Shown: in pieces, positions 5,001-28,592 of the stretch
Position numbering within the stretch: position 1 is the first letter of the stretch
Layout of the letters: the number at the start of each line of letters is the position of its first letter
DNA from: Candidatus Woesebacteria bacterium
GTDB lineage: Bacteria > Patescibacteriota > Microgenomatia > UBA8517
Length of the DNA stretch: 35,763 nt
Reading direction: 5' to 3'
NCBI GenBank assembly: GCA_003484955.1
Contig: DMZH01000003.1
Coordinates: 1 to 35,763, forward strand
The notes under the pieces: generated by a model
Seen by the model: only the letters and a program-made list of their open reading frames with translations
What the model was told of the DNA's origin: nothing
Database searches by the model: none
Position numbers and translations under genes: made by a program

Positions 5001-7916
5001 ACACAAGTGGACTCACCATCAAACATCGACCTTGCTGCTGGCCAATCCTCAACAGGCAACGATTTTGTAAACTTCCACAACGTTTCAATTTCTGGGCAAA
5101 AATTTAATGATTTAAACGGAAACGGAACCAAAGATGCTGGAGAACCAGGACTTTCTGGTTGGACAATCAACCTTGATACCGGTGCTAATGGAAGTGTCGA
5201 CGCAACCACCATGACCGACACAAGCGGTAACTACACGTTTAGTGTTGGACCCGGAATTTATAGAATTCGTGAGTCTGGACAAATCGGGTGGTCCCAAACA
5301 ACCACAAACCCTGTCGATTTTACAGTTGTAAGTGGGCAAAATGTAACAGGCGTCGATTTTGGGAACTTTAATCTTGGTCAAATTTCCGGAAAGAAATATG
5401 AAGACTTGAATGGCAACGGAGAAGATGATACAGGTGAACCTGGCCTTTGGGGATGGTTGATTTATATAGACACAAATAACAACGGTCAACTGGATTCTGG
5501 TGAGAGATCAACTTCAACAGATCCGACCGGCCATTACACTTTTTCAGATCTTGGTCCAGGAACATATATTATCCGCGAACAAAATAATGAAGGTTGGGCA
5601 CAGACTGACCCAACCGGTTTAGATACCTCCGTTGGCGGACAGAATGACGGAAGCTACATAGTTGCAATGACGAGTAATGGCAATAAAACCGAAAGAAATT
5701 TTGGGAATCAAATGCGCGGGTCAATCACTATCACTAAATCTGCAATTCCCCAAGATGTGCAGAATTTTGGATTCACAAGTCCACAACTTGGGAGCTTTAC
5801 TTTAAATGATGATGGCAACGGTAGTGATAGCTACAAGATCTTTCCAAATTTGGGAAGTAATACTAACGGCATTACTTATACAATAACCGAAGACCTGACT
5901 ACCGGATGGAAATTAACAAACATCTCGTGTACTGGGGATGAGGACGTAGCCCATGACGTGAATGGCCGCACAGTTACGCTGACATTGGATCATCCGACAG
6001 AGAATGTAAGTTGTGAATTCACCAATACCAAACTTGGTTCAATCTCAGGTTTCAAGTACGCCCAGGGTAGCCAGGTTCCATTAACCGGATGGACAATTTC
6101 CCTATACCAAAACCAAACTTTACTTGCATCACAAGTCACCACAGCAGAGGGATATAAATTTGACAATCTTTCACCGGGTGCATATTCACTTTCCGAGGGT
6201 CTTTTGAGCGGCTGGACACAGATAAGTATTCCCTCAAGCGTAGTGATCACCGCCGGACAAGACTCAACCAATAATAATTTTATTAATTTCCTTAATGGCA
6301 ATATTGCTGGATATAAGTGGAATGATTTGGACGGTAATGGTGCCTGGGACAACGAAGAGCCTCCCATTGAAGGTTGGAAAATCTATCTTGATCGACCGGA
6401 TGGACCTGACATTTATGATCTGACTAATGCATCAGGGCACTATTACTTTGGAGATTTGGGACCTGGAACTTACAGAGTTTACGAAGAAGTTCAGCCCAGT
6501 TGGACCCAAACCGCACCAAGTGGTAGTGAATACATAATCGATATGACCCAAGGTGCACAGGGACTAAACAATCCCAATTATAATTTTGGTAATCAAAGAT
6601 TGCCGGTTACCATCAAGGGCTACAAAGTAATTTGTGAGAATGAAAGTGATTTACCAAATTGGGGTAATCATGGATCAACCATCGACGCAGACACAGCCCA
6701 AGATTATGTAGATTCTCACTCAAGTTGTTCTTTATCAGAAGACTGGGATTTCCAATATGGGCCTTCGGGGGCGGGGAGCTTTGGATCTTTCCAGACAGAC
6801 ACAAATTCATTGGCTGGTTCCTGGAATACTTTTAATGTAAGTTCGGATGCAATAATCAACGACCTTTCTAATTTTGGAGGGAGAATTGAAGTCCGAGAAG
6901 TCTTCCCTGATAATACCTATTTGCCATTTAGCAATAGTGGTGATTTCAGCGCAGAGTTCTATTGCTCGGGCGACACTTATAACTACGATAATTGGGAATG
7001 GATAAATAACCCTCAATACGATCAAACTTATTACTGTGTTGCCTTCAACACACTAAATCCTGGACATATTATTGTTGATAAAGTAACAGATCCTGAAAGG
7101 GATCCTCAAGTGTTCACATTTAATCCCAGTTGGAGTGAAAACAACTTTACCCTTACAGATCAAGATAATCCTCTGGATAGCGGCCCACTTGCACCCGGAG
7201 TATATTCTGTAAGTGAATTAAAACAGGACGGTTGGAGTTTGGAGGGTGCAACCTGTGACAACAAAGGTTTGGTTGATGAAATTAATCTGCATCCTGGAGA
7301 AACAGTTACTTGTACCTTTAGTAATCTAAAACTTAATCCCAATATCACCGTCACTAAATCAAATGATAGGAGTGGGGGAACAACGGCCGGCTCCACTGTT
7401 ACCTATACATTAACTGTCAAAAACGATGGGAATGTTGATCTACAGGGAGTTGATATTATAGATATACTTCCCGGAGGGTTTGGTTTTGTTGCAGGCTCAA
7501 CAACCGGTACCGCAGTCGTTCCTACAGTTTCCGGAAGTGTTATAACCTGGAGTAATGTAGGAGACTTGGCAGTCGGAGCATCTTTCATTCTGACTTACCA
7601 GGCGACTATTTCTACAGATTCCACAAATGGACTTTATACCAACTTTGCCACATGCGACTCATACTACTACGGCGGGGATGAGGAACAAACCTCTGTTCCC
7701 TGTAACACTGCCAACTCTACGGTTTCGATAGGCAGTGTACTTGGCTACGGCGGAAACTTGCAAGGACAGGTTTTGGGAGCATCAACCGAACTTCCCGCGA
7801 CAGGAAGCCCGACCTTGGTTTTAATTGTTGCTCTTGTTATGCTTGCAACCGGACTTTTCCTGAACGGATTTACAAAAAGAGAGGAAATAAAACCCAGAAA
7901 ACATGCTAAAAAATAA
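2079..7916 (+). CDS. Giant (1945 aa) secreted, sortase-anchored surface adhesin
   Basis: Signal peptide MKKLISIIATSAILLNSLVTPLSALA, then a T/P/E-rich linker. A parallel beta-helix-like region follows (NGDEIEIQSDITV, GVTISNLTVDG, SGITVNGSIVTVNNITT). Repeated prealbumin/Cna-B-like modules each end in C.FTNT. There are three SdrD-B-like units (G.K.NDLNGNG..D..EPGL.GW.I.LD) and a DUF11-like segment (TVTYTLTVKNDGNVDL). The C-terminus carries an LPATG sorting signal. Confidence 0.9.
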   Translation: MKKLISIIATSAILLNSLVTPLSALAQEATPTPTIETTELFATTEASSTPTDIASPTPAETVIPEATATSTPLPELLVEEILPVEAEPQVAEPSATLVVSEPQPVEKVYLSDGQAIINTVNTDWNIDEANGSAETKEAVKLGVKYIFPLNDKVTVTFKSLPTDESLRTTIKIVKVKVSDLNLPDNMNPYGEYAYDITTDMSDGTFDYDLTLPKPDGQSVDVAYMEDTDSTPLTIAENQTSQEGGTVKASDINHFTIFVVVNPNPAGNGSTSNNTCLTAAAGGAVTCYDTIQAAIDASTNGDEIEIQSDITVGQQVNVNKDVTIDGNGFTVSPNFGYTNNSNNSTFGIHSSGVTISNLTVDGASGTNLHGINIYMVNNILLDGVSVLNNDKSGITVNGSIVTVNNITTAGNGWGGINVDQGVGVTTEAKLIIAGTSSHNEAAHIWLDDFRKATVDDTSPPQYQVTNGLGNLRIYTLKNSNNASASLEQCRNGTSGSPNDCLSLGGSVGWVNGNAGSSNSHYVEGLSIPYRTIMEDLPLGTPITITLEYDIKHSGAHAIDFLTSYNRLQPHSPFGHSVESIDPTSGVAGVPGTYSTYTIPTPSSVGSPVSGQPTDRFNSLPADEKLMTLYGGTISNVVYATQGDLNANSASTSINVTFTATSATAVLAWGGHIAREADWGTNQSAGGINGSPYHMRLINWTQGSLGNQDRSLSAGAVAAPSSITIVKDAQPDNFQDFTFVTTGNGLSSFTLDDDADGTLLNMTTFNSLLAGTFTITEDSMPGWSLFSKTCVTDGTSNSPSTFSPITDGISINLVAGENITCTFTNTQQNGTLRVNKITVPNEAEVFSVTATGSGTITGTATQNVTGGSFVDYTVTTGTYSVTESPKIGWAETNNTCARVSVSAGGISECTITNTKLGSISGFKYEVGNQTPLAGWIISLYQEQTLIATQSTTLSGYSFNNLLPGIYSLFENLLGGWTQVDSPSNIDLAAGQSSTGNDFVNFHNVSISGQKFNDLNGNGTKDAGEPGLSGWTINLDTGANGSVDATTMTDTSGNYTFSVGPGIYRIRESGQIGWSQTTTNPVDFTVVSGQNVTGVDFGNFNLGQISGKKYEDLNGNGEDDTGEPGLWGWLIYIDTNNNGQLDSGERSTSTDPTGHYTFSDLGPGTYIIREQNNEGWAQTDPTGLDTSVGGQNDGSYIVAMTSNGNKTERNFGNQMRGSITITKSAIPQDVQNFGFTSPQLGSFTLNDDGNGSDSYKIFPNLGSNTNGITYTITEDLTTGWKLTNISCTGDEDVAHDVNGRTVTLTLDHPTENVSCEFTNTKLGSISGFKYAQGSQVPLTGWTISLYQNQTLLASQVTTAEGYKFDNLSPGAYSLSEGLLSGWTQISIPSSVVITAGQDSTNNNFINFLNGNIAGYKWNDLDGNGAWDNEEPPIEGWKIYLDRPDGPDIYDLTNASGHYYFGDLGPGTYRVYEEVQPSWTQTAPSGSEYIIDMTQGAQGLNNPNYNFGNQRLPVTIKGYKVICENESDLPNWGNHGSTIDADTAQDYVDSHSSCSLSEDWDFQYGPSGAGSFGSFQTDTNSLAGSWNTFNVSSDAIINDLSNFGGRIEVREVFPDNTYLPFSNSGDFSAEFYCSGDTYNYDNWEWINNPQYDQTYYCVAFNTLNPGHIIVDKVTDPERDPQVFTFNPSWSENNFTLTDQDNPLDSGPLAPGVYSVSELKQDGWSLEGATCDNKGLVDEINLHPGETVTCTFSNLKLNPNITVTKSNDRSGGTTAGSTVTYTLTVKNDGNVDLQGVDIIDILPGGFGFVAGSTTGTAVVPTVSGSVITWSNVGDLAVGASFILTYQATISTDSTNGLYTNFATCDSYYYGGDEEQTSVPCNTANSTVSIGSVLGYGGNLQGQVLGASTELPATGSPTLVLIVALVMLATGLFLNGFTKREEIKPRKHAKK
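7791..7913 (+). other. Cell-wall sorting signal of the giant adhesin: LPATG, hydrophobic helix, basic tail
   Basis: ctt ccc gcg aca gga at 7791-7805 encodes LPATG. It is followed by SPTLVLIVALVMLATGLFLNGF and KREEIKPRKHAKK. Confidence 0.85.
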
Positions 7917-8823
7917 ACTTACGACATCATTGATTCTTGGCTTATTGATGCTTTTCGGAGTTGTCATTCCGGCAAAGGCATCAACTGTTTTGGCCATTCA
8001 AACATTGCCATCATACATAAACACAAGAGACTTTAAACTCTCCTGTACAAGTGATGCTTCCTCGGTTACATTTTCCGTCAGTAAGAATGGGGGCTCTCCG
8101 GTTAATTTTGCAACACTAAATCCGACAGCCACCCCATGCCAAGTACAGGTAACCCCTGCTCAAATCGATGAAGAAGCAACATACACATTTACAGTTACAG
8201 ATGGTTCTCTATCACGCTCAACTTCAACCATCTTTGACAATTCCGGACCGTCTTCGGTTTCAGGTTATTACAAAGACGGGCTTTCCGACGGGTACAGGCT
8301 TCATTACCATACACCCAGCGATTCAGATTTTGACAAAGTAATAATCTATAGGGGAGATACTCCTGATTTTTCGGCCGACAGCTCTCATGAAATAGCCACT
8401 GTCAATTCCTCGCCAAATTCCGACATGACCTATGAAGATCACTCCGGAAGCGGTAAATACTACAACATTCGTGCTTTAGACCATGCAGGTAATTCTTCAG
8501 CTCTTGTGGGAGATGGTGGGGGAACGGTGACAATTGTTACAACAGGTACGCCATCGTCGACAGGCGGGAATGTAACAATATTCCCCAAGGAGGCGGGGGC
8601 AGGAAGTGTACTGGGAACTGAAGCTACAGCAAGTCCAACACCCGAATTAGGCAGCCCTCAACCGGATCAGGGAGGAGTTGTTAACCAAATTAACCAGTTT
8701 GCCAACCAAACCCCGAATCCTATTAAATGGATTCTGACCCACAAAAAGATCTCAATTGGGATTGCACTGATCCTTTTTGGCATTGCCTATTACCTCTACC
8801 GTATGAGCAAGAAAAACAAATAA
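7903..8823 (+). CDS. Secreted, C-terminally membrane-anchored protein with an Fn3-like segment
   Basis: The start overlaps the last 14 nt of the adhesin gene. Signal peptide is MLKNKLTTSLILGLLMLFGVVIPAKA. YRLHYHTPSDSDFDKVIIYRGD...YYNIRALDHAGNSS looks Fn3-like. The C-terminal TM is ISIGIALILFGIAYYLY followed by RMSKKNK. There is no LPXTG. Confidence 0.7.
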   Translation: MLKNKLTTSLILGLLMLFGVVIPAKASTVLAIQTLPSYINTRDFKLSCTSDASSVTFSVSKNGGSPVNFATLNPTATPCQVQVTPAQIDEEATYTFTVTDGSLSRSTSTIFDNSGPSSVSGYYKDGLSDGYRLHYHTPSDSDFDKVIIYRGDTPDFSADSSHEIATVNSSPNSDMTYEDHSGSGKYYNIRALDHAGNSSALVGDGGGTVTIVTTGTPSSTGGNVTIFPKEAGAGSVLGTEATASPTPELGSPQPDQGGVVNQINQFANQTPNPIKWILTHKKISIGIALILFGIAYYLYRMSKKNK

Positions 8824-8886
8824 CGGTGTAATTATGCGGCAGATGATTTACGAATATATTAATTGTATTTTTGTAAGTGGTTTTGT

Positions 8887-8913
8887 AAACCGCTCCTAAA
8901 GGGCGGTTTTTTT
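8887..8913 (+). terminator. Rho-independent terminator of the surface-protein operon
   Basis: The stem aaaccgctc / gggcggttt includes one G-U pair, the loop is ctaaa, and a T7 run follows at 8907-8913. Confidence 0.6.
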
Positions 8914-9077
8914 GTGCACCAGATTTTATTATCGATAGTGCACAACCCTTCCGATAATCTCGGCTTAAGGCGTGAACGGATAGTTCCCAAAAGCCGAAAG
9001 CGGAGATAAGGAGGGTGTATATTAAAAGGCTTTCTCGAGAGGGAGGCCTCCCTCTCGAAGCAGACTCTTGTAGTCTG
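8913..9077 (+). other. ORF-free run of four consecutive helices; candidate structured RNA leader or REP-like palindromes
   Basis: Helix 1 pairs tgtgcac 8913-8919 with gtgcaca 8938-8944. A composite helix pairs 8945-8966 with 8991-9016 (accct/agggt, atctc/gagat, cggctt/aagccg). A 24-nt perfect palindrome tcgagagggagg|cctccctctcga lies at 9035-9058. The hairpin cagact-cttgt-agtctg lies at 9061-9077. Confidence 0.25.
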
Positions 9078-9123
9078 TTAATAAAGGCTGCGAAAGGGGG
9101 TGAATAAATATTAAAAAGTTATT

Positions 9124-9143
9124 GTTTAGTTTAGTTTAGTTTT
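9124..9143 (+). repeat. Pentanucleotide tandem repeat (GTTTA)x3 plus GTTTT
   Basis: Read directly as gttta gttta gttta gtttt. It lies between an SD-preceded short frame and the downstream ORF. Confidence 0.9.
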
Positions 9144-9162
9144 TGGGATTGCTGGAGTATTT

Positions 9163-9561
9163 GTGTTTGTAGGTTTAGCCTTTGCGGGTAATCCTAGCGC
9201 TGATGACAATTGTGATACGTCTGTAACCGATCCTTATCTCGGGTATGGAACACGAGCCGACCTATACAATTGTAAATCTATTGGTAATTCTGGGGAGGAG
9301 CAGGGGATTTACTTTATCAATGACGCCACTTCGGAAAGTTTGGGTTACACAGAAAATCATGGAACATGCAGTGTGGTAGTAAAATGGTCAGGTGATTACG
9401 GATCAACACCTGGTCTTGATTTTGGAACAGTATTTAATAACACAAAATGCTCCGATGGATTTGTTGAGATATGGGGTGACAATTTTGGTCCTGGTGATGG
9501 ATATGGGGCAACTCCATACATTTGGTCAATTGGAAGACAAGGTTCACTGATACATCCTTAA
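9163..9561 (+). CDS. Small Cys-containing, probably secreted protein; N-terminus ambiguous (see finding on the GTTTA repeat)
   Basis: GTG at 9163 lies 5 nt after GGAG. As annotated, the N-terminus MFVGLAFAGNPS is only the tail of a signal peptide. Five Cys residues and a G/Y/D-rich composition. The gene has its own terminator. Confidence 0.55.
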   Translation: MFVGLAFAGNPSADDNCDTSVTDPYLGYGTRADLYNCKSIGNSGEEQGIYFINDATSESLGYTENHGTCSVVVKWSGDYGSTPGLDFGTVFNNTKCSDGFVEIWGDNFGPGDGYGATPYIWSIGRQGSLIHP

Positions 9562-9585
9562 CTAATTTATTAGTTGTTAAGCGAG

Positions 9586-9626
9586 AAAAAAAGCAGGGGA
9601 GAGTGAAAGCCACCCCTGCTTTTTTA
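9586..9626 (+). terminator. Rho-independent terminator, potentially bidirectional (A-run/T-run flanks)
   Basis: agcagggg 9592-9599 pairs with cccctgct 9613-9620. An A7 run lies upstream and a T6 run downstream. Confidence 0.75.
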
Positions 9627-9672
9627 TTGTTGTGTTATAGCATGAGAAACCTGTACATGTTAATATTCATAT

Positions 9673-10470
9673 ATGCGATGCTACGAATTGTTTATAGACG
9701 AACTTGGTCAATCAAACCCAACAAGTAAACAGTCGGACGTTTACGTTTTATCGGGGTGTGCGATTGAAGACGATAAAAGAAATGAATTAAAAATATTTGC
9801 CGATCAAATAAAATTTAAATATTGGGGAAATACAAACATCGTCTTCCACTCAAGAGAAATTGCTAGAAATGAAGGATCATTCTCAATTTTCTCCCGGAAT
9901 CTCTCAAGACGTAGAGAGTTCTTTGAGGATCTATATAAGTTCTTAAATCTAGCAAATATAATTCTTTTTGTTGTCGTATGTGACAACAAACAGGCAATAA
10001 AAAATGGTTGGAATTCTGTAAAGGTTATCAAAGAAACTGGTAATTTAATTTTTCTGCAATTTACAACATGGCTTTTAGGTTTAGCTTCCGCAAAAGGAAA
10101 AGTTAATATTGAATCGGCTACGGCAGAGAAAGACAGATATTATCTAAATACGTTCTCGTACTTTTTGGCACCGCAAAATAAAGATCTTAATGTTGATTAC
10201 AAAATTATTCAAAACATACTAACTTCCATATCTTTCGTAACAAAGAGGAACCACGACATTGAGGAGCAAATCGCAGATTTGATGGCGTATGCCGCAAAGT
10301 GTAAATATTTAAGAGTGACCAAAAGAAAAACTTTTAAAGTTGGCTCGTATGAGGATAAAATAATCAGGCTTTTGGAGACAAAATTATGGCGTTTACCCAA
10401 GCTGGCAGGGGAGAAAAAGATGAAATTTTATAAAAACATTGAATCGTTCTGCGTAATTCCAAAACAATAA
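9673..10470 (+). CDS. DUF3800-like protein (function unknown)
   Basis: The N-terminal YELFIDELGQ resembles the yiDEsG motif I associate with DUF3800. An extended -10 box (TGTTAATAT, 9658-9666) ends 6 nt before the ATG. Confidence 0.5.
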   Translation: MRCYELFIDELGQSNPTSKQSDVYVLSGCAIEDDKRNELKIFADQIKFKYWGNTNIVFHSREIARNEGSFSIFSRNLSRRREFFEDLYKFLNLANIILFVVVCDNKQAIKNGWNSVKVIKETGNLIFLQFTTWLLGLASAKGKVNIESATAEKDRYYLNTFSYFLAPQNKDLNVDYKIIQNILTSISFVTKRNHDIEEQIADLMAYAAKCKYLRVTKRKTFKVGSYEDKIIRLLETKLWRLPKLAGEKKMKFYKNIESFCVIPKQ

Positions 10471-17906: not shown

Positions 17907-18134
17907 TTACTTCCTAAGCACTTTCCGTAAAAGGATTTCGGAAGATGCTTGCAACTTAACCGATTTGGCTTTGTCGGGACACCCACTAGACCTATACCTG
18001 GCAATATCCAGAATAAGGGATCCATCATCAAGTCTCCCGGGATCACAATAATATTCACCCTCTGCATAAATTCTGGCAGGACATGTAAAGCAAGCTGGGG
18101 GAAAAGAATGATCATGGTAACCTAACCGCTCCAC
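17907..18134 (-). CDS. Possible small Cys-containing protein (75 aa); weak call
   Basis: The GTG start overlaps the upstream recombinase stop by 1 nt. The composition looks soluble (CFTCPARIYAEGEYYCDPG). A competing ORF at 17891-18115 in another frame looks less protein-like. Confidence 0.3.
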   Translation of the reverse strand: MERLGYHDHSFPPACFTCPARIYAEGEYYCDPGRLDDGSLILDIARYRSSGCPDKAKSVKLQASSEILLRKVLRK

Positions 18135-19057
18135 TAATCCTTTCCTCCCTTTCCATGGAAAGTTTCGTTTATATTTCTAGGTTGTTTATTTGTTACATGG
18201 GTATAGATTTGTGTTGTAGAAATATTCTTGTGTCCCAGCATTTTCTGGACACTTCTGGTGTCCGCCCCAGCCATAAGAAGATCTACGGCAAACGAAGAGC
18301 GAAGTGTTTTTGGTGTTACCTCAGATTTAATCGCGGCTTTCTTCTTATACTTCAAAATGGCTCTTTGTATAGACCTAACGGTGAGCCTCGTATTACCGTT
18401 AGTACTACCTTTATGATGAATAAACAACGGTTTTCCGCCATCTTTTCTTGATTTTAAATAGTTTTCTATCCACCCTAAAGCTCTAAGAGACAAAAAAATG
18501 AATCTTTGTTTTTTACCAGTACTCACAATAATAATTTCTTTCTTTATAAAGTCTATATTATCTCTGTCCAGGTTTGCCAATTCTGAAACCCTAAGTCCGG
18601 TGGAGTAAAGAAGTTCCATTATGGCTTTATCCCTTTTTCCCTGAACGGTTTTCAAATCCGGCGCATTCATGAGTTTTTCAACATCCTCACCGGAAAGAAA
18701 ATCCATTTTTGAGCTTGCCGTCTTTGGTACCAACACTTCCTCTGCATTCAAAGTCTTTACGCCTTTTCTTCTTTCCCATTTCAAAAAACTTCGAAGTGCA
18801 ATCAAATGGAATCCCAGGGTTTTTGTTGAAAGACCCATCTTTGCAAGGTCCTTTTTGTAATCCTCAATAACAGATGCTGATATATCCGAAATTTTCGGTT
18901 TTTGAACTTTTTTGGAAATAAAACCTAAAATTCTTTTTAAATAAAGGGTGTAATTGCGGACAGTGAGAGGGGAGAAGTGGCCTTCAAATTCCAAAAAATC
19001 GAGATACCGATCAATACTTTCAGATAATACCGACTGAATTTGAGCAGCTTCAGCCAT
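18134..19057 (-). CDS. Xer-like tyrosine recombinase with a variant box II (Lys in place of the HxxR His)
   Basis: SAM-like N-domain. Arg lies in GLRVSEL and a beta-hairpin Lys in STGKKQRFIFL. TPKTLRSSFA occupies the place of pHxLRHsfA. LGHKNISTTQIYTHV supplies the His and the nucleophilic Tyr. Confidence 0.85.
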   Translation of the reverse strand: MAEAAQIQSVLSESIDRYLDFLEFEGHFSPLTVRNYTLYLKRILGFISKKVQKPKISDISASVIEDYKKDLAKMGLSTKTLGFHLIALRSFLKWERRKGVKTLNAEEVLVPKTASSKMDFLSGEDVEKLMNAPDLKTVQGKRDKAIMELLYSTGLRVSELANLDRDNIDFIKKEIIIVSTGKKQRFIFLSLRALGWIENYLKSRKDGGKPLFIHHKGSTNGNTRLTVRSIQRAILKYKKKAAIKSEVTPKTLRSSFAVDLLMAGADTRSVQKMLGHKNISTTQIYTHVTNKQPRNINETFHGKGGKD

Positions 19058-19111: not shown

Positions 19112-19555
19112 TTATTTCCAATTTTTAAAAACAATTCCATTATTTGTCCCGTACGGCCAAAAATGAACCGTCATTGGATGGTCTTCCCGTAATATATATT
19201 TTAGAAGTAAAAGCATCTTTGTCGGACGAGTCGTTCCTATTTCAAATATTCCGATATCGTCTCCATAAACCAAAGCATCAGCAACTCCAACGGAAATATC
19301 AATCTCCCTATCAAAATCGAGTTTATTTAATTTTGCCCAATCTGACACTTTCTTAACCCCTTCGCTGTGAGACGCAAAATCTTCTCTTTGTTTTATTTCC
19401 AGCTCCAACAAGCCGTGCTGTATTAAATTAAGAATTTCTTTTGCACATAAAACTACATGAACCCTTTCAAGAGCCGGCCTTTCGGAGGTTACATAGGTAC
19501 CCCGGGCGCACGGAAAAACCACACTATTTAGAACAAAGGCTAAATCATATTTCAT
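19112..19555 (-). CDS. Hypothetical 147-aa protein between the two recombinases; possible PD-(D/E)xK-like core
   Basis: 4-nt overlap with the upstream recombinase gene. VGVADALVYGDDIGIFEIGTTRPTK loosely resembles a D...ExK nuclease core, but the Lys is not in the canonical position. Confidence 0.5.
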   Translation of the reverse strand: MKYDLAFVLNSVVFPCARGTYVTSERPALERVHVVLCAKEILNLIQHGLLELEIKQREDFASHSEGVKKVSDWAKLNKLDFDREIDISVGVADALVYGDDIGIFEIGTTRPTKMLLLLKYILREDHPMTVHFWPYGTNNGIVFKNWK

Positions 19556-20511
19556 TTTTTAAGAGGGTGAAACTTGTTGTGGGTTTCTTCGGCAAACTTA
19601 TCTGACGAATGAACATAGCGTGTTGTAGTATTAAGGGACTCGTGTCCCAAAAGCACCTGGATTGCAGCAGGGGAGGCTCCCTGTTCGGCTAAATAAGTGG
19701 CAAATCCATGTCTCAATGAATGAGCAGAAGTCGGAACATTTATCCTTAACTTTTCCCTATACTCTTTAATCTTGGCCTGCAAATAATTTGTGGAAATCCT
19801 TCTGTCCGATTTATTACTGTTTGAACCTCTATAAGGGATAAATAAAGCGGCTAAGTTGTCATTTCTTGTATTTAGATAAACTTCCAAAAAATGTATTGCA
19901 CGGGGCGTTAAATACACAAATCTTTCCTTTTTCCCTTTTCCCATTATGAAAATTTTTCCGCTGCCGTCTATGTCCCTTTTTTTAAGTTTACAAAGCTCAC
20001 TGATACGCATTCCTGTTGAAAATAGAACCTCAAGCATTACGCGGTTTCTTAACCCGATTTTAGGGTTTTTTTCTAAAGCCTCCGGCGCTTCAATAAGCCT
20101 AACTAAGTCGGAAAACTCGGCTACTTTTGCATGTTTTTTCTCAGTTTTTACCAATTTAACCGTTTCGGGAGCAACCGGAATTTTATAATCCACATCCACT
20201 AAATATTTGAGATATGACCTTAAGGTGGAAAGCATCCTATTCATGGAAAAGGAAGACAATTTGATACCGTCTTTTTCCTTTTTGGTTGAGGTTAATCTGT
20301 CCTTTGATGCTAAATACGCTTTATATTGATTAATAACCAGTTTTGTGACATCTTCAAAAAGAATGGGGGAGGGGCCAGCAAACTCTTCCAAAAAAAGCCG
20401 GAATGTCGACAAATCACGTTCATAATTATAAACAGTTTCCTCGGAATAATTTTGGGTTTTAATATAAAGTAAGAAGTCTTCAAAAAGAGGTAACTGAATT
20501 TGAGAAGTCAT
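19552..20511 (-). CDS. XerC/XerD-type tyrosine recombinase with canonical active site
   Basis: GMRISEL, MGKGKKERFVYL, AHSLRHGFATYL and LLGHESLNTTTRYVH give the R-K-HxxR-H-Y set. Confidence 0.9.
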   Translation of the reverse strand: MTSQIQLPLFEDFLLYIKTQNYSEETVYNYERDLSTFRLFLEEFAGPSPILFEDVTKLVINQYKAYLASKDRLTSTKKEKDGIKLSSFSMNRMLSTLRSYLKYLVDVDYKIPVAPETVKLVKTEKKHAKVAEFSDLVRLIEAPEALEKNPKIGLRNRVMLEVLFSTGMRISELCKLKKRDIDGSGKIFIMGKGKKERFVYLTPRAIHFLEVYLNTRNDNLAALFIPYRGSNSNKSDRRISTNYLQAKIKEYREKLRINVPTSAHSLRHGFATYLAEQGASPAAIQVLLGHESLNTTTRYVHSSDKFAEETHNKFHPLKK

Positions 20512-23613: not shown

Positions 23614-23666
23614 ACTACCCCGTATTATACCAAATTTACCTTAATACAAAAGTCCTGGCTTGCCTA

Positions 23667-23695
23667 TTGACAAATCGTACGACTACTCGTACGAT
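23667..23695 (+). promoter_or_regulatory. Toxin-antitoxin promoter with tandem palindromic operator
   Basis: TTGACA at 23667-23672 and a -10-like TACGAT at 23690-23695 (17-nt spacer). Two copies of the self-complementary octamer TCGTACGA lie at 23675-23682 and 23687-23694. Confidence 0.5.
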
Positions 23696-23701
23696 TATAG
23701 C

Positions 23702-23968
23702 ATGACTACTATAACTTTAACCGCCAGTGAAGCCAGGGAAAACCTGTACAAACTTATTAAAAAGGCCTCTATGGGTATTCAAGCTTTTGAAATCAAGTTA
23801 AGAGGTTCTGAGCCGGTTGTCCTTATGAGCAAATCCGAACTTGAGTCCTGGGAAGAAACTTTAGATATATTGTCCAGTCCGGAAGAAGTAAAAGCACTTA
23901 AAGAAGCTCGTAAAGAAACCAAACTTTATAGCGAGGCCGATGTGAAAAAAATGCTTGGTCTTAAATAA
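23702..23968 (+). CDS. Phd/YefM-family antitoxin (88 aa)
   Basis: MTTITLTASEARENLYKLIKKA..VVLMSKSELESWEETLDIL is typical of Phd/YefM. The ATG at 23702 is preferred because the track's TTG at 23660 lies upstream of the promoter elements. Confidence 0.8.
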   Translation: MTTITLTASEARENLYKLIKKASMGIQAFEIKLRGSEPVVLMSKSELESWEETLDILSSPEEVKALKEARKETKLYSEADVKKMLGLK

Positions 23969-24216
23969 TGGATCTTTTCTTCAAACCTGTTGCCACCAAA
24001 GAATTGAAAAAACTTCCAGTCGTCGAGGCTAGAAAGATATTTAAAAAAATTCAACTACTAAAAGAGTTTCCGTTTTCAGGTAAACCCTTAAGTGGAGAAT
24101 TTGAAGGATCACGATCCATCAGGACTTGGCCGTATAGAGTGATTTACAGAATACAACCCAAGGTCGGAATCGTCATTGAAACTATCAAACACCGCCAGAG
24201 TTCATATAAAAGATAA
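23968..24216 (+). CDS. RelE/ParE-family toxin (82 aa)
   Basis: TAATG overlap with the antitoxin gene. The pattern is LKKLP...KI..L...P..GKPL.GE..G.RSIR..PYRVIYRI......VIETIKHRQ..Y. Confidence 0.8.
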   Translation: MDLFFKPVATKELKKLPVVEARKIFKKIQLLKEFPFSGKPLSGEFEGSRSIRTWPYRVIYRIQPKVGIVIETIKHRQSSYKR

Positions 24217-24255
24217 CACCATTCCGATTGTTATATTGACAGAAAATTCTTCACG

Positions 24256-24507
24256 ATGTTAAATGATTTTGTGATAAAAAATTCTAAGGATGAACATTTA
24301 TATAAAGTTTTTTCTGAGGCCTTCCATGAAGTTGTTGAGCCCCATCTGGAAGACATCAAAGATACATTGGAAAACGTTGAAACCAGATTGGATAAAGTCG
24401 AAACTAAACTGGATAAAATTGATGACCGGCTAGATAGACATGGAACGATACTCGATGGTCACGAAAAAAGAATGTCAACTCTGGAGGAAGTCTCCCCGAT
24501 CCACTAA
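24256..24507 (+). CDS. Small coiled-coil protein (83 aa)
   Basis: Heptad-like repeats LENVETRLDKVETKLDKIDDRLDRHGTILDGHEKRMSTLE. Confidence 0.5.
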   Translation: MLNDFVIKNSKDEHLYKVFSEAFHEVVEPHLEDIKDTLENVETRLDKVETKLDKIDDRLDRHGTILDGHEKRMSTLEEVSPIH

Positions 24508-24531
24508 ACCCCTAACTCCCAATAAGAAAAA

Positions 24532-24747
24532 CTAAATGTTTTGTAGTCTGTGGCTTGCCATGAGAAGCTCTTCGGCGAGAAGTTTATGTTCAAGATTCAA
24601 ATCTATTTGTAAAAATCTTTTTAGTTCCGGTTTTTCTTCAAGATTTTTCAATAAAACAGAAACAAATTTTTGGTTGGTACCCATTGCCGTCCAGTAAGCT
24701 GCTCTTCGTAAGTCTGATGCTGTATTTAAATAATCCAACTTTGTCAT
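24532..24747 (-). CDS. Small helical hypothetical protein (71 aa)
   Basis: 4-nt ATGA overlap with the upstream 109-aa gene. No motif recognised. Confidence 0.5.
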   Translation of the reverse strand: MTKLDYLNTASDLRRAAYWTAMGTNQKFVSVLLKNLEEKPELKRFLQIDLNLEHKLLAEELLMASHRLQNI

Positions 24748-25073
24748 TTCAATAGATTTTCCGTAACCTTAGTAAACACTTTTCTTATGTCAGGATCAAG
24801 TATTTCCATGCTGTCATTCTCCTCCCCCGGTCTAATATTTATTATTGCCTGCATATCAATCTTTCCGGAAGATAAATCAAACCCTCCTCCCCATAAGTTT
24901 TTCTGTACAGAACCATTTTCTATAAGAATTTTTTCTGCATCGGCATGAAATTTTCCGCCGATGGCAATAATCTCTTTTTTAATATCCGCGACAACCTTTA
25001 CATAACTACTAAATTCCTCAGAAGCTTTCTCAATTTCTTCTTTTGTGGCTTTTCTTTCCAAAATGACTATCAC
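24744..25073 (-). CDS. Small conserved-looking hypothetical protein (109 aa)
   Basis: YVKVVADIKKEIIAIGGKFHADAEKILIENGSVQKNLWGGGF resembles a small uncharacterised family (possibly DUF5674, from memory and unverified). Confidence 0.55.
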   Translation of the reverse strand: MIVILERKATKEEIEKASEEFSSYVKVVADIKKEIIAIGGKFHADAEKILIENGSVQKNLWGGGFDLSSGKIDMQAIINIRPGEENDSMEILDPDIRKVFTKVTENLLK

Positions 25074-25090
25074 AAGAAGATTTTACCATA

Positions 25091-25112
25091 TTATGGAGCC
25101 ACTTCCCTCCAA
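25091..25112. repeat. 22-bp perfect direct repeat, left copy (ttatggagccacttccctccaa)
   Basis: Identical to 25740-25761. It lies 3 nt outside the stop of the aspartic-protease gene. Confidence 0.95.
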
Positions 25113-25115
25113 CAA

Positions 25116-25532
25116 TCAAACCTCTAAATTAATCTTTCCTCGTTTGTAAAAAAATGATATTTGGCCCAAGTGGTCAAAAAATCCGATCTCACCCAAAAGA
25201 GAGAAGCCGTTTGATGGAATGTCATTAGTGAACACAATCGGAGTTGAAAAGCTAACACTTTCGCCTCTATTGTAAATCATTAAATCTAAAACGGCCAAAA
25301 ATCCGGTTAATTTTTGACTCTTTTCACCAACTCCGCCAAATATTATTGGCTTGTCCATGTTTAGACTTAATCCAAGATCTTTGGCTATGGACAGGTGAAA
25401 AACATTAAAATCAGCACCAGAGTCTATAAGAGCTGGAACATTTACAGCTGAATTCTTATAGGAAAGTCTGACAGGAATAATTGGTCTTTTATGTGGGCCA
25501 ATTTTAATATAATCAAACTTCATTTTCTTCAT
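25116..25532 (-). CDS. Retropepsin-like (clan AA) aspartic protease
   Basis: The ALIDSGADFNVF active-site D-S-G-A motif sits in a ~140-aa protein. The size fits a homodimeric retropepsin-type fold. Confidence 0.75.
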   Translation of the reverse strand: MKKMKFDYIKIGPHKRPIIPVRLSYKNSAVNVPALIDSGADFNVFHLSIAKDLGLSLNMDKPIIFGGVGEKSQKLTGFLAVLDLMIYNRGESVSFSTPIVFTNDIPSNGFSLLGEIGFFDHLGQISFFYKRGKINLEV

Positions 25533-25717
25533 CCAATGAAAGCTGTTAAATTTGAGGGAACACGAAAAATATTGGGAACTTTATACCCCATTTTTTTAGC
25601 TTTTCGGTAAACAAACGAGGAGGTTTTGCCGGATACCACCACTTTTGCAAAACGATCGTCCATTGCTACCCACTTTCCTTTATATTTTTTATAAACCGGA
25701 GTTAAATCCTTGGTCAT
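25529..25717 (-). CDS. DUF5678-like small protein (62 aa), partner of the aspartic protease
   Basis: KKYKGKWVAMDDRFAKVVVSGKTSSFVYRKAKKMGYKVPNIFRVP matches my memory of the kGkWVA...vv.sg family. 4-nt overlap with the protease gene. Confidence 0.6.
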   Translation of the reverse strand: MTKDLTPVYKKYKGKWVAMDDRFAKVVVSGKTSSFVYRKAKKMGYKVPNIFRVPSNLTAFIG

Positions 25718-25739
25718 ACAATTTTAGTATAACACAACT

Positions 25740-25761
25740 TTATGGAGCCACTTCCCTCCAA
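25740..25761. repeat. 22-bp perfect direct repeat, right copy; it is the stop codon plus the last 6 codons (WREVAP*) of the 950-aa gene
   Basis: Read directly; identical to 25091-25112. Confidence 0.95.
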
Positions 25762-28592
25762 GTGGTTAGGCTGTAGGCAAGGTCGACCGGGAAGAGAAGT
25801 TCCTGGTCGGGAGCATATTCAAAATATTCTGCCGGTGTGGTTGTGTTTGTGGCAGAACCTAAATCCCTCTGTAAATTCATTCCCCCATAAGCCGCCACCG
25901 TTCCCCTCACCCAAAGTTGAGAGGTTCCTCCGGTTCCTGAGCTGAAAGTTCCATCGGCAACATAAATTCCTTCAAGGTTCGCCGATCCTCCCCCACCAAC
26001 ACCCGGATCAACAATAATATTTCCATAGCTTCCGGCAGTATTTTCACCCGCAACTGCTAAAAAGAATCCGCTTCCCTTGGTAAGTTTGATATTTCCTTTA
26101 ATACTCAGGTTGGCCCCTTTAACAATCAAGATAATTTTTCTGGCCCCAAGATTGGCAGCAGAGCTAATGGTAAGCGGGATACCTCCCATAGCCGAACCGT
26201 CATATACGTACCAATAGTATCCATTGTAGGCAGTTCCGCCGCTTGCAAAGAAGCTACCGGCAACAGAACTTGATGAAACCGGGTTTATAACGGCATCTCC
26301 CGGAATTGAATTTACAAAATAATTCGAATCATAAATTTTGCTCGTAGAGTATGTCGTGTTTACAAGCCAACCGGTTGCCGAAACATTCGGTTTTGTCAGG
26401 TTTGTCGATGTACCGTAAACGGCAACGCCGGGGTATCCCCCGTCCCCATTTTTACCAAATAATTGCCCCGGAGGAATAGTGCTTCTTAGATCCTGATTTG
26501 TAGCCACGTCACTATCTTTTACCTGCCACCAGGGATTTGAGGTGACACTAACCGCCGTCGTAGCAGAACACCTGCTTACACCCGACATAATCACATTTGC
26601 CGTTACAGTAGCGGATCCCCCTGACACTCCGGTTATATTTGTTGTATACGAACTGGTTGTATCGGAGGCAGGATTAACAGTTGCTATACCCGTATTTGAA
26701 GATGCGAAATTCACACTGGAAATTGTTCCGTTTGAGAAAGTCACATTAGTACCGGCCGTCTGTGAACCTCCCACCGACATACTGTAATTCGGCGAGTTAA
26801 ACGAAATTGTACAGGAAGGAGGCGGATAATAATGCCACCAGAGATCGGCATACCCATTGCTGCTTCCGCAGAATGAATTATCCGGCAAATTTACCGAACT
26901 TGACATTACAGGAGCACTGGTATGGCAAGCCGTGTTGTTATAGCAAAGTGTATAGCCTACAGTGTAATTTGCAGGAACAGATACGGATACCGTCCTTGTT
27001 TTACTTGCACTTTGATAAAACAAAAAATAAGGCTGGGTGGATGTGGATGTTAAAGGATCGTTCAAGGTAACAGTTTGGCTGTTTGCAGGGGCAATATTTT
27101 GATTGCCCGGCATTACAACCTTATAACCCTGAACTGTACAGGTGGGCGCTTCTTGCAAGAAAAACCATAGACCGTATGTTTGTCCGCTTACCAATCCGGT
27201 ACAAGTTACCGTGCCTCCGGAAAGTGTACACTTTCCGGTACCTTCCTCAATCCATTTTAATGTATAGTTTGAAGGGAGATTGGCAAGAGCAAAAGTGAAA
27301 TTTCCAGAAGCTGAAATTCCTTGTGCAGAGTAAGGGTAATTGTATGCTCCACCGGCGCAATTAGTGTGATAGTTTATTGAACCTGTAGCTGCACCGGAAT
27401 AATTTATTGCCAGACCTGAAATGTTCGGGAAAGTTCCACAATTTACATCTCCCGGATCCTCAATTACCTGATAATATCCATCATCAAAAACGCCATTACG
27501 GTTTTTATCCAATCCAACAACTACCTGCATAGTTATACCTGATGGTGGAGGTGGGGTTGCAGTAGTACACCCGTCGGCAATTGGTTTACAGCCTGTGGAA
27601 CAACAAACTTGGGTATCGTTATCACAAGTTTGGGTTCCACACTCAGTGGTTCCCCCTGGAGATGGAGTTGGGGTTGGACCACCACCACTTATCGAACAAC
27701 TGTTGCTACCATCTACAACACATTCTGAAGATGAACAACTTGGGCTACAATTCAAATAATTACCACACGAAATTGAGCCACCGCTAGTATCTGCAGGGCA
27801 AACTGTATCGTTAAAACAAACACCACCACCCACACAAGGTTGACCTATATAATCACAAGATGTACCAGTTATAGTACACCTCAGCTGAGTCGTACTTGTT
27901 CCACACTCAAAAAAGCCTGTGCATGCTGCCAGAGCTCTGCCCACCTTAAACGGATTATTCTTTTCAAAAAAGGACAATATATACCTCAGCAGGTTTGAGC
28001 CATTTTTTGACACTTCTATAGGTCTTGGGGAAGTTTCGATATATCTTTTAATCATTTCATTAGTCTTTGTACTTATTTCTTCGTTCGTCCAAAAATCCGG
28101 ATTTTTGGACATCATAAGTGCCCTACTTAATGCGACAATCAAAGCATATGTAAGTCTTTCTTTTTCTGTATAATCAGGTGAGATGTATATTTTTAAGCGA
28201 AGATTGCCTTTATCAAACTCCTGACCAAAAGAACTCAAAACTTCATTTTGTGCACCCACTACCCTTCCCCATTTTTGAGGCTCTTGGGTGAGAGTAACTG
28301 CAACATTTGAAAAATTCTGCCATTCTATCTTCTCCCAATCGTAGTATTTTTTGTCAGAAGGTGATCCAAAACCCGTTTCTTTTAATAAATTATTGAAGGT
28401 ATCATTGTCACCTACCTGTACTGAATATCCATTGATGCCACCTGATATTTTAACCGGTATAGGAGAGTACTTAGTGAATAAATAATAACCCACTTCAGCA
28501 AGAATAACGACTACAAAAAATCCCAACAGGACCAAAAGAAACTTAACAACCTTGTCGGGTTTTTTGGTCTCAACTACTGTGTCATCAGACAT
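25740..28592 (-). CDS. Large (950 aa) membrane-anchored surface protein with a Cys-rich module and a Big_2-like Ig domain
   Basis: N-terminal TM FLLVLLGFFVVVILAEVGYYLF. There are 18 Cys between aa 224 and 342, then PT-rich linkers. The Big_2-like segment is VNFASSNTGIATVNP..GGSATVTANV. Confidence 0.85.
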   Translation of the reverse strand: MSDDTVVETKKPDKVVKFLLVLLGFFVVVILAEVGYYLFTKYSPIPVKISGGINGYSVQVGDNDTFNNLLKETGFGSPSDKKYYDWEKIEWQNFSNVAVTLTQEPQKWGRVVGAQNEVLSSFGQEFDKGNLRLKIYISPDYTEKERLTYALIVALSRALMMSKNPDFWTNEEISTKTNEMIKRYIETSPRPIEVSKNGSNLLRYILSFFEKNNPFKVGRALAACTGFFECGTSTTQLRCTITGTSCDYIGQPCVGGGVCFNDTVCPADTSGGSISCGNYLNCSPSCSSSECVVDGSNSCSISGGGPTPTPSPGGTTECGTQTCDNDTQVCCSTGCKPIADGCTTATPPPPSGITMQVVVGLDKNRNGVFDDGYYQVIEDPGDVNCGTFPNISGLAINYSGAATGSINYHTNCAGGAYNYPYSAQGISASGNFTFALANLPSNYTLKWIEEGTGKCTLSGGTVTCTGLVSGQTYGLWFFLQEAPTCTVQGYKVVMPGNQNIAPANSQTVTLNDPLTSTSTQPYFLFYQSASKTRTVSVSVPANYTVGYTLCYNNTACHTSAPVMSSSVNLPDNSFCGSSNGYADLWWHYYPPPSCTISFNSPNYSMSVGGSQTAGTNVTFSNGTISSVNFASSNTGIATVNPASDTTSSYTTNITGVSGGSATVTANVIMSGVSRCSATTAVSVTSNPWWQVKDSDVATNQDLRSTIPPGQLFGKNGDGGYPGVAVYGTSTNLTKPNVSATGWLVNTTYSTSKIYDSNYFVNSIPGDAVINPVSSSSVAGSFFASGGTAYNGYYWYVYDGSAMGGIPLTISSAANLGARKIILIVKGANLSIKGNIKLTKGSGFFLAVAGENTAGSYGNIIVDPGVGGGGSANLEGIYVADGTFSSGTGGTSQLWVRGTVAAYGGMNLQRDLGSATNTTTPAEYFEYAPDQELLFPVDLAYSLTTWREVAP

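Follow-up and report, generated by a model that had tools for sequence, protein, structure and literature searches.

How does a pair of small genes that encodes no recombinase come to lie between two copies of the end of the gene next door? The question is raised by a stretch of 35,763 nucleotides of contig DMZH01000003.1 (assembly GCA_003484955.1) from a Candidatus Woesebacteria bacterium, called the window throughout. The window lineage belongs to Woesebacteria-type bacteria of the Candidate Phyla Radiation (CPR) from groundwater and sediment metagenomes. In the window, a gene for a small DUF5678 protein and a gene for a retropepsin-fold aspartic protease, together termed the cassette, are enclosed by a 22-bp direct repeat, one copy of which is the end of a surface-protein gene (gene950). 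The initial annotation of this DNA had taken the arrangement for an insertion scar, either an att-like core or a long target duplication, and had proposed that the pair moves as a discrete cassette. The reading favoured here, with a probability of about 60%, is that acquisition of the cassette through homology-facilitated illegitimate recombination (HFIR), involving a single chromosome, left the two 22-mers behind as a long target duplication. As judged from sequence, the cassette most likely does not hop autonomously, and is instead integrated by host recombination from a related genome.

The repeat and its counterparts at other loci

All genes around the repeat lie on the minus strand. The 22-mer TTATGGAGCCACTTCCCTCCAA was found in exactly two copies in the window, identical at 22/22 positions, and no further copy was found there with up to three mismatches allowed. 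None of 100 shuffles (0/100) gave any 22-mer match, and by our own arithmetic only ~4e-5 exact 22-mer pairs are expected by chance in 35.8 kb. Read on the minus strand, the repeat is T|TGG AGG GAA GTG GCT CCA TAA and consists of the last base of a Thr codon followed by codons for W R E V A P and a stop codon. This reading agrees with the earlier assignment of the right-hand copy (copy A) as coding and of the left-hand copy (copy B) as non-coding. Copy B starts 3 nt past the TGA of the protease open reading frame (ORF) and is overlapped only by a spurious plus-strand ORF. The 627 bp between the copies (25113-25739) comprises a 22-nt leader, a 62-amino-acid (aa) ORF, a 138-aa ORF and 3 nt.

Is the repeat a scar at all? 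It might instead have arisen by chance or in assembly, or be a functional motif kept in two places, such as a promoter -35 element, an operator, a terminator or an RNA element. Each copy lies ~20 nt upstream of a start codon, and the TTGGAG within the repeat could serve as the -35 element of yebC in L012/L041-type alleles of the locus, with an 18-nt spacer to TATAAT. However, no Rfam match was obtained, the folding z-scores were -1.2 and 0.0, no excess of promoters or terminators was observed, and copy B has been deleted without replacement in one related lineage (L156/L062). Other sequences play the same bracketing role elsewhere, and in 40 close contigs the 22-mer is present only as the two copies that bracket the pair, so that it does not behave as a general intergenic motif. 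A chance match is at odds with the shuffles. Because more than 40 contigs, assembled independently from different samples and with different assemblers, show this structure, it is not attributable to assembly; the repeat is also shorter than typical final k-mers. Taken as a whole, an origin other than a scar is scarcely credible.

Homologous pairs elsewhere were found to duplicate their own local targets, the behaviour for which the initial annotation had proposed a search. For loci with at least 200 nt on each side, sequence upstream of the partner gene was compared with sequence downstream of the protease gene, and the highest-scoring ungapped match in direct orientation was recorded. In 400 permuted flank pairs this score averaged 8.3 and never exceeded 13, and pseudo-cassettes positioned elsewhere in these loci gave at most 17, with 0/290 scoring at least 19; scores of 19-56 were obtained for 13/58 real cassettes. 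In a gapped scan with 350-nt flanks, 13/59 metagenome loci exceeded the null maximum. After merging of shared insertions, these correspond to ~11-13 independent events, found throughout the protease family (members 32-100% identical to the window protein). Repeat-bracketed cassettes thus make up about a fifth of the loci, with ~75-80% lacking a repeat. Each event has its own repeat sequence, 20-85 nt long, with a period of 650-890 bp, and the cassette appears as a self-contained unit of ~0.65-0.9 kb at many unrelated CPR loci. Repeats of 35-85 bp were observed at L063, L064, L081, L090, L094, L131, L135 and L140 (Table 1). The live copy lies directly against the cassette and has its edge within 0-3 nt of a stop or start codon, and the dead copy stays contiguous with the native flank.

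At L135, where the repeat lies in an intergenic region, the 52 identical bp are followed by a differing 7-nt patch that includes an indel, and then by 12-13 identical bases over a TTGACA -35 box (4745-4762 versus 5590-5608). Because these shared bases cover the box, the duplication took in the -35 element of the hrcA promoter, and the cassette there may combine its own -10 box with the -35 copied in this way. At loci other than that of the window, no empty site was found, including among 21 contigs at L135; the short Logan contigs of L135 stop 95 nt beyond the gene, the break expected of a 52-bp repeat with k=31, and are uninformative on an empty site.

A site-specific event would also place a repeat at the end of a gene. 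The 22-mer would then be an att- or dif-like core for a Xer-like recombinase acting in trans, and the pair a cis-mobilisable mini-element or dif-module. Two genes of the Phage_integrase family lie nearby, copy A together with its downstream sequence is loosely dif-like by our own reading, and integrative elements typically restore the 3' end of their target gene. However, the repeats at other loci are unrelated in sequence and span a four-fold range of length, and neither a palindromic core nor significant structure was found in the 22-mer. The recombinase genes are also present in cassette-free relatives (L150-L154, L158-L161), no GC-skew inflection was observed at the locus, and homeologous stretches of 79-85 nt far exceed a core. 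Site-specific recombination is therefore largely refuted, and its probability is very low. Of the two forms of scar originally proposed, the long target duplication is supported and the att-like core is not, given that the repeats differ from locus to locus, that no shared motif or inverted repeat was found at cassette ends across loci, and that Xer genes occur in relatives without the cassette. Two further candidates were rejected. A cassette resembling a transposon, insertion sequence or miniature inverted-repeat transposable element is contradicted by the lack of shared end motifs or inverted repeats and by duplications of 20-85 nt; an integron cassette, dif module or integrative element is contradicted by the lack of a common core and palindrome, and by the cassettes carrying their own putative promoters.

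Divergence between the copies and the route of acquisition

What are the two copies of a repeat to each other? The codon positions of the differences between them were examined at six loci with one copy in a clear frame, representing five independent events; L094 was left out, its upstream frame being broken in the contig. Third codon positions hold 34/39 of the inter-copy differences (87%), and of the differing codons 31 are synonymous and 5 non-synonymous. The dead copies still encode the same peptide, including the stop codon. Decay after an in-place duplication predicts 33% of differences at third positions, or ~45% if the live copy gains synonymous changes only; the observed excess has P = 5e-12 against uniform decay and P = 5e-8 against decay with selection on one copy. 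When L064, whose insertion is common with that of L063, is removed, 29/34 differences remain at third positions. The copies at L063 match at 34/41 positions, a divergence of 17%, and encode one and the same 13-residue peptide; their longest stretch without a difference is 14 nt. Those at L090 are identical at 34/40, and those at L041, a different lineage with the pair at the same place as in the window, show a single difference, at a synonymous third position. Because the differences are almost wholly synonymous, the copies diverged while both were coding. This third-position pattern indicates that they are the donor and recipient alleles of one gene end, rather than a decayed duplicate made in situ, and that the cassette arrives with a piece of the adjacent gene.

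An in-situ target duplication would need two nicks 20-85 nt apart, made by a nuclease of unknown nature or by breakage and repair, followed by fill-in and by later allele replacement of the functional gene end. Its geometry is that of a target-site duplication, the exact repeats of the window and L135 are as in a fresh duplication, allele replacement is plausible in a recombining population, and a role for double-strand breakage is favoured in the literature on restriction-modification (R-M) systems (PMC2853133). Yet two steps would be required at each of five independent loci, and the replacement tract would have to stop exactly at the cassette boundary. Furthermore, the cassette proteins show no resemblance to nucleases or transposases, the 20-85 nt variability combined with the lack of terminal repeats is unlike any transposase, and the dead copies show almost no decay at first and second positions. 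This origin is improbable.

The acquisition by HFIR would proceed as follows. In a related donor, the cassette already lies beside the same gene X, and DNA of this donor enters a recipient that has gene X without the cassette. The first join would be a homologous crossover within the body of gene X, serving as the anchor. The second join would be illegitimate, linking the donor end just past the cassette to a point N nt before the end of gene X in the recipient. The recipient segment between the joins would be replaced, with the donor tail completing gene X, and the last N nt of the recipient would be stranded beyond the cassette as a dead copy, still on its native downstream DNA. In the window, N would be 22 and the illegitimate junction would be the TTG that separates the protease stop from copy B. 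After insertion at the window locus, vertical inheritance with later homologous shuffling would have followed. The 17% divergence and the identical runs of at most 14 nt make a crossover inside the L063 repeat unlikely and favour an anchor in the gene body. The HFIR model accounts for the variable repeat length, the edge at a gene boundary, the synonymous divergence and the absence of a recombinase. It also accounts for the repeat-free majority of cassettes, either by joins outside the gene or as older scars. Of the original proposal of a discrete mobile cassette, horizontal mobility is retained, the codon-position pattern pointing to transfer by host recombination as the most likely route rather than autonomous hopping.

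Homeologous copies would also be the product of a Campbell-type cycle, in which a circle carrying the gene end and the cassette would integrate by a single crossover in the gene end and so regenerate the direct repeats. The circle would derive from excision between repeats in an earlier host or from circularisation of a fragment, comparable to the virus-like life cycle of Kobayashi for R-M units. Single crossover of circular DNA has been shown experimentally to duplicate a homologous segment (PMC3240628), and a cycle of insertion, amplification and release has been proposed for R-M units (PMC2853133). The two hybrid copies that result are compatible with the codon pattern, and the exact repeats, 22 nt in the window and 52 nt at L135, could sustain a crossover. 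One position of the window repeat also bears on this cycle. It differs between the main haplotypes in both copies, being AGG/AGG in the window lineage and AGA/AGA in L041 (7301-7322, 7950-7971), with G/A recombinants in L012, L019 and L023. Such a coincidence has a chance of 2-5% by a rough estimate, which hints at conversion or exchange between the copies and fits the Campbell-type cycle. On the other hand, several repeats are too short or diverged for a crossover (34/41 with a longest run of 14 nt at L063, 34/40 at L090), and a donor already carrying the repeats, or an unlikely exact circularisation, would be needed. In addition, no excised or empty allele was seen in more than 60 close contigs here, nor in 21 at L135. 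The Campbell-type cycle is a serious rival, especially for the exact repeats, although overall it appears distinctly less probable than HFIR.

Several points weigh against acquisition by HFIR. No donor genome was identified, and the donor allele is deduced from codon statistics. The copies in the window are identical, the homeologous signature having been seen at six other loci and extended to the window by analogy. The sole empty site, in L155, is fairly distant and may be ancestral or due to secondary excision. A donor with the cassette beside the same gene is needed, which leaves the first arrival at a new locus unexplained, and the concerted G/G versus A/A difference is not predicted by the model. 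Laboratory HFIR usually deletes recipient DNA, and duplications in E. coli have been obtained via single crossover of circles (PMC3240628).

HFIR itself has been described by de Vries & Wackernagel 2002, Prudhomme et al. 2002 and Meier & Wackernagel 2003 (cited in PMC5361080, PMC3240628). The events proposed here share with it one homologous anchor and one illegitimate join, the lack of any enzyme of the element, variable junctions and many repeat-free insertions. The synonymous divergence of the copies (34/39) and the joining of the dead copy to the native flank both fit HFIR, with the former also expected from single-crossover integration. However, HFIR is known from laboratory transformation and conjugation, usually with deletion of recipient DNA, whereas the illegitimate join here would fall inside a region that the donor also carries, leading to duplication.

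HFIR has been proposed for the insertion of toxin/immunity modules (PMC5361080). In effector-immunity modules of the type VI secretion system (T6SS), and in the C-terminal tips of Rhs and contact-dependent inhibition (CDI) proteins, resident parts are displaced and orphan 3' fragments are left behind (Kirchberger et al. 2017, PMC5361080). As in those systems, a module of toxin/immunity type would come from a relative, anchored in a conserved upstream gene, and the resident 3' portion would be pushed downstream as an orphan; orphan and live copies would be alleles of different strains. Unlike in those systems, where a whole immunity gene or toxin tip is displaced and may stay functional, the piece left behind here amounts to no more than 20-85 nt and comes from an unrelated gene with a housekeeping or surface role, and the module lies beside the anchor gene without being fused to it.

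Insertion with long target duplication was previously reported for R-M units (Nobusato et al. 2000, ref. 37 in PMC2853133; Furuta, Abe & Kobayashi 2010, PMC2853133). These duplications are described as variable direct repeats, single-copy in a strain without the unit and free of mobility genes; they sometimes overlap gene 3' ends and were found mostly in competent species. The earlier statement that no mobility mechanism had been described for such pairs therefore does not hold, long target duplication without other mobile elements being known at least for R-M systems. The mechanism is presented there as unexplained and is tentatively tied to double-strand breakage by the R-M system. The resemblance to the cassettes is close: a small unit of selfish type with no transposase or integrase, long direct repeats of variable length that differ per locus and often overlap a neighbouring gene's 3' end, and a repeat that is single-copy in a related insert-free genome (L155, with 86% identity in YebC), empty sites not having been found at other loci. 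The 627-bp insert of the window encodes only the DUF5678 protein and the retropepsin-fold protein. In contrast to R-M units, this cargo is not an R-M system and is nuclease-free, which weakens the idea that DNA breakage by the unit itself drives insertion, and the hosts, CPR bacteria, have been seen in metagenomes only. The criteria of Furuta et al. 2010 call for an insert of <20 kb and a duplication of >30 bp, the latter set to exclude site-specific cores. The window repeat, at 22 bp, falls under this cutoff, whereas repeats of 35-85 bp occur elsewhere in the cassette family, and site-specific cores are excluded here on other grounds. Finally, the repeat copies of the cassettes are homeologous, and such copies were not found described for R-M units in the available part of PMC2853133.

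Table 1. Features of the cassette locus in the window, and repeats bracketing related cassettes at other loci
Feature	Position in window	Strand	Length	Remarks
gene950, surface-protein gene	25740-28592	-	950 aa	Weak Big_2 match; last 22 nt are copy A
Repeat copy A	25740-25761	-	22 nt	Coding (live): last base of a Thr codon, then W R E V A P and stop; 3' end of gene950 (...TTWREVAP, stop)
Cassette leader AGTTGTGTTATACTAAAATTGT	25718-25739	-	22 nt	Extended -10-like box TGTTATACT at 25726-25734
DUF5678 partner gene	25529-25717	-	62 aa	Pfam PF18929, E 3.4e-8
Retropepsin-fold aspartic protease gene	25116-25532	-	138 aa	Catalytic motif ALIDSGAD
Spacer TTG	25113-25115	-	3 nt	Protease stop to copy B; putative illegitimate junction
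Repeat copy B	25091-25112	-	22 nt	Non-coding, dead gene950 tail; contiguous with native downstream flank
DUF5674 gene	24744-25073	-	109 aa	Pfam E 4e-29; native downstream neighbour of gene950, outside the cassette
L081 repeat			79 nt	3' tail of upstream MFS transporter gene
L131 repeat			65 nt	3' tail of upstream 52-aa ORF
L140 repeat			64 nt	5' start of downstream M16 peptidase gene
L090 repeat			40 nt	3' tail of convergent downstream methionyl-tRNA synthetase (MetRS) gene
L063, L064 repeats			35-41 nt	3' tail of convergent downstream LexA gene; one shared insertion
L135 repeat			~85 nt, 52 exact	Terminator and -35 region between unknown gene and hrcA-grpE-dnaK

Age of the insertion and the surrounding genes

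Which copy of the window repeat is the original, and how old is the insertion? The C-terminus W[RQV]E[VI][AN]P, followed by the stop codon, is kept in the gene950 homologues L041, L042, L043, L044, L056, L155 and L156, down to ~35-45% identity. Because a WREVAP-type tail is conserved also in the cassette-free homologues among them (L042, L043, L044, L056), copy A is ancestral and copy B derived. In L041, the pair is bracketed by CTGGAGAGAAGTGGCTCCATAA and TTGGAGAGAAGTGGCTCCATAA. The gene950 products of the window and L041 (950 versus 838 aa) are 73% identical overall, with an overall DNA identity of ~60%; the last 800 nt of the gene are ~93% identical to L041 (4806-7322), whereas the N-terminal two-thirds is hypervariable. 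Such a difference points to diversifying selection on the exposed part or to its exchange in cassette-like fashion. The DNA identity between the two lineages is alike, at 93-95%, for the 3' 800 nt of gene950, the DUF5678 gene, the protease gene and yebC. Because the pair is as conserved as its flanks, it has been vertically inherited since the window and L041 lineages split, and a recent horizontal arrival in the window lineage was rejected. In the L156 and L062 lineage (91% identity in YebC), the pair follows a gene950 ending in NWREVAP, and copy B and the first two-thirds of the DUF5674 gene are gone by a later deletion without replacement. On these sequence comparisons, the insertion here is old and would predate the split of the window, L041 and L156 lineages.

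No pair-free allele was found in the close population among more than 60 close contigs retrieved with gene950, YebC, protease and DUF5678 queries, including those of the lineage with 97% identity in YebC. An identity ladder of YebC led to L155 (GCA_964645605.1), in which YebC is 86% and DUF5656 84% identical to the window proteins. Its gene950 orthologue has 660 aa, is 46% identical over the last 269 residues and ends in SSIWREVAP with ATGGAGAGAGGTAGCCCCATAA. Downstream of this single tail come 40 nt and then, without the pair, DUF5674 and orf71 genes that are both decayed, and yebC, an arrangement that provides the empty site that the initial annotation had anticipated. L155 may represent the ancestral empty state or a precise loss, either of which fits duplication at insertion. 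Other YebC relatives at 84-86% identity are not syntenic and have a TPR gene upstream.

Three blocks of single-nucleotide polymorphisms (SNPs) are combined as mosaics in the nine cassette haplotypes of the close population, which indicates frequent homologous exchange across the region.

The order of genes in the window is gene950, the pair, DUF5674, a 71-aa ORF, an XhlA-like ORF, ParE, Phd, yebC and DUF5656, and two Xer-like tyrosine recombinase genes of the Phage_integrase family lie ~4 kb further (19552-20511, 18134-19057). In the alleles of L012, L019 and L041, copy B abuts the yebC -10 box, and the block from DUF5674 to Phd is missing. That this block is a second inserted island was considered and rejected, the outgroup L155 having DUF5674 and orf71, and the block itself being flanked by no long duplication. 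Because L155 shows DUF5674 and orf71 to be ancestral, the L012, L019 and L041 alleles are deletions. The five-gene block (23614-25090 in the window, compared with 5676-5694 in L012 and 7972-7990 in L041) was deleted exactly from the end of the 22-mer.

Three further observations concern these neighbourhoods. The DUF5674 gene and the overlapping 71-aa ORF form a second conserved pair of small genes (24532-25073 in the window, 4062-4501 in L155). A DUF5674 homologue also follows a distant DUF5678/protease pair in L069 (2236-2556), and this adjacency may be non-accidental. L155 encodes a Xer-like recombinase of 744 aa (7712-9946) with an intein that holds a LAGLIDADG homing endonuclease domain, as identified with Pfam. 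Elsewhere in the window, a 1945-aa ORF (2079-7916), presumably encoding a repetitive surface protein, contains diverged internal direct repeats (families D1-D3, 40-71 nt, with a spacing of 555-2778 nt).

The cassette proteins and what the module may be

The stop codon of the DUF5678 gene and the start codon of the protease gene overlap by 4 nt (ATGA). In 80 metagenomic loci retrieved by alignment of the protease, a DUF5678-like gene was found immediately upstream of the protease gene in nearly all cases, usually overlapping it. Because it accompanies nearly every protease gene, the two constitute a conserved two-gene module. In the window leader, the box TGTTATACT lies 8 nt ahead of the DUF5678 ATG, and no Shine-Dalgarno sequence is present. 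A TGnTAnAAT-like box 7-11 nt ahead of the partner ATG, again without a Shine-Dalgarno sequence, was also observed in cassettes at other loci. A promoter scan with a strict consensus did not call the -10-like box of the leader. The leader is likely a promoter that would yield a leaderless message, as suggested by the placement of the box.

The match of the 138-aa product to Pfam Asp_protease_2 is weak (E 7e-4, below the curated cutoff). Despite this, the earlier retropepsin-like label was borne out: the ALIDSGAD motif is invariant across 39 protease homologues, a profile of the protease searched against PDB sequences matched solely retropepsins and Ddi1 RVP domains, and an AlphaFold (AF2) model was obtained with a predicted local distance difference test (pLDDT) score of 93 and a predicted template-modelling (pTM) score of 0.86. 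The model resembles HIV-1 protease and Rickettsia APRc, with TM-scores up to 0.71. The product is thus confirmed as a retropepsin-type protease, insofar as the predicted fold, the motif and the profile agree. The best bacterial structural match is APRc (PDB 5c9b, 5c9d), which shares the single-domain fold of ~130 aa and the D-S-G-A motif. APRc is a membrane-embedded enzyme for autotransporter processing. The cassette protein, in contrast, is a soluble-looking 138-aa protein with ~14% sequence identity to APRc and is always paired with DUF5678.

The partner has a conserved C-terminal tail (VP....PY[IV]G). For this protein, a profile search gave no PDB relative, a single-sequence model was unusable (pLDDT 51), and no characterisation of DUF5678 was found in the literature, the sole full-text match being incidental. 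NCBIfam has no model for either the DUF5678 protein or the protease. Neither protein matched toxin or antitoxin families of Pfam or NCBIfam, no restriction or modification domains were found in them with Pfam, NCBIfam and PADLOC, and family, profile and structure searches revealed no resemblance of either to a nuclease or transposase. In PADLOC, the protease weakly matches the candidate defence component PDC-M52B (E 2e-5).

Both cassette ORFs are intact in 42/43 close contigs. The sole broken cassette is that of L162 (4366-4956), a contig from the L041 lineage, in which loss of 11 nt has put the protease gene out of frame, with the DUF5678 gene intact. In database annotations the partner gene is in places shortened to 44 aa or not called; such truncation was rejected as gene-caller noise, the ORFs being intact. 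Within the protease gene, 15 SNPs are clustered in 62 nt (25238-25300), giving the peptide GFLAVLDLMIYNRGESVS versus GYMAVLDLIIFNKGESVN. This 62-nt block combines freely with the 5' and 3' SNP blocks among the nine haplotypes, and the patch looks like a recombination import in a surface loop.

What does the module do? It is probably selfish, toxin-antitoxin-like or defence-like, with the protease restrained by the small partner or acting on it. Like type II toxin-antitoxin systems, the cassette consists of two small genes that overlap by 4 nt, begins with the small partner and, judging from the leader, has its own promoter. It also shows a patchy distribution and horizontal spread, and in the window it lies in a cluster with a ParE/Phd pair. 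It differs from them in matching no known toxin or antitoxin family, with the weak PDC-M52B match as the sole hit. To our knowledge, a retropepsin-type protease is not an established toxin. The toxin-antitoxin comparison is one of architecture, context and distribution only.

Could the pair drive its own movement? It might be an autonomous selfish element of a new kind without a recombinase, either of addiction type, with a protease toxin and a small inhibitor or substrate, or a defence module that promotes its own capture. Such an element would undergo rounds of insertion with long duplication, of amplification and of excision in CPR bacteria, and might promote its capture by killing or damaging cells that lose it, or by provoking breaks and repair. 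We regard this as quite unlikely. If it were true, mobility by long target duplication would be a general life-style of post-segregational-killing modules and not a peculiarity of R-M systems.

How small accessory modules such as toxin-antitoxin, defence and R-M systems move without mobility genes is a long-standing gap. The long-target-duplication signature, previously tied to R-M systems, is found here for a nuclease-free two-gene module in CPR bacteria, in about a dozen independent insertions beside the genes for LexA, MetRS, an M16 peptidase, an MFS transporter, hrcA and a surface protein. That the two copies are different alleles of one gene end turns the scar into a testable mechanism, and speaks for integration by the recombination machinery of the host rather than by the cargo. 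A dead gene end with synonymous divergence is also a practical marker of recent transfer between lineages in metagenome bins. The DUF5678 and retropepsin pair is itself a conserved, uncharacterised module and a candidate for a role in defence or as a toxin-antitoxin system. Were other cargo to show the same pattern, this would provide indirect evidence of recombination-based gene flow in uncultivated CPR lineages.

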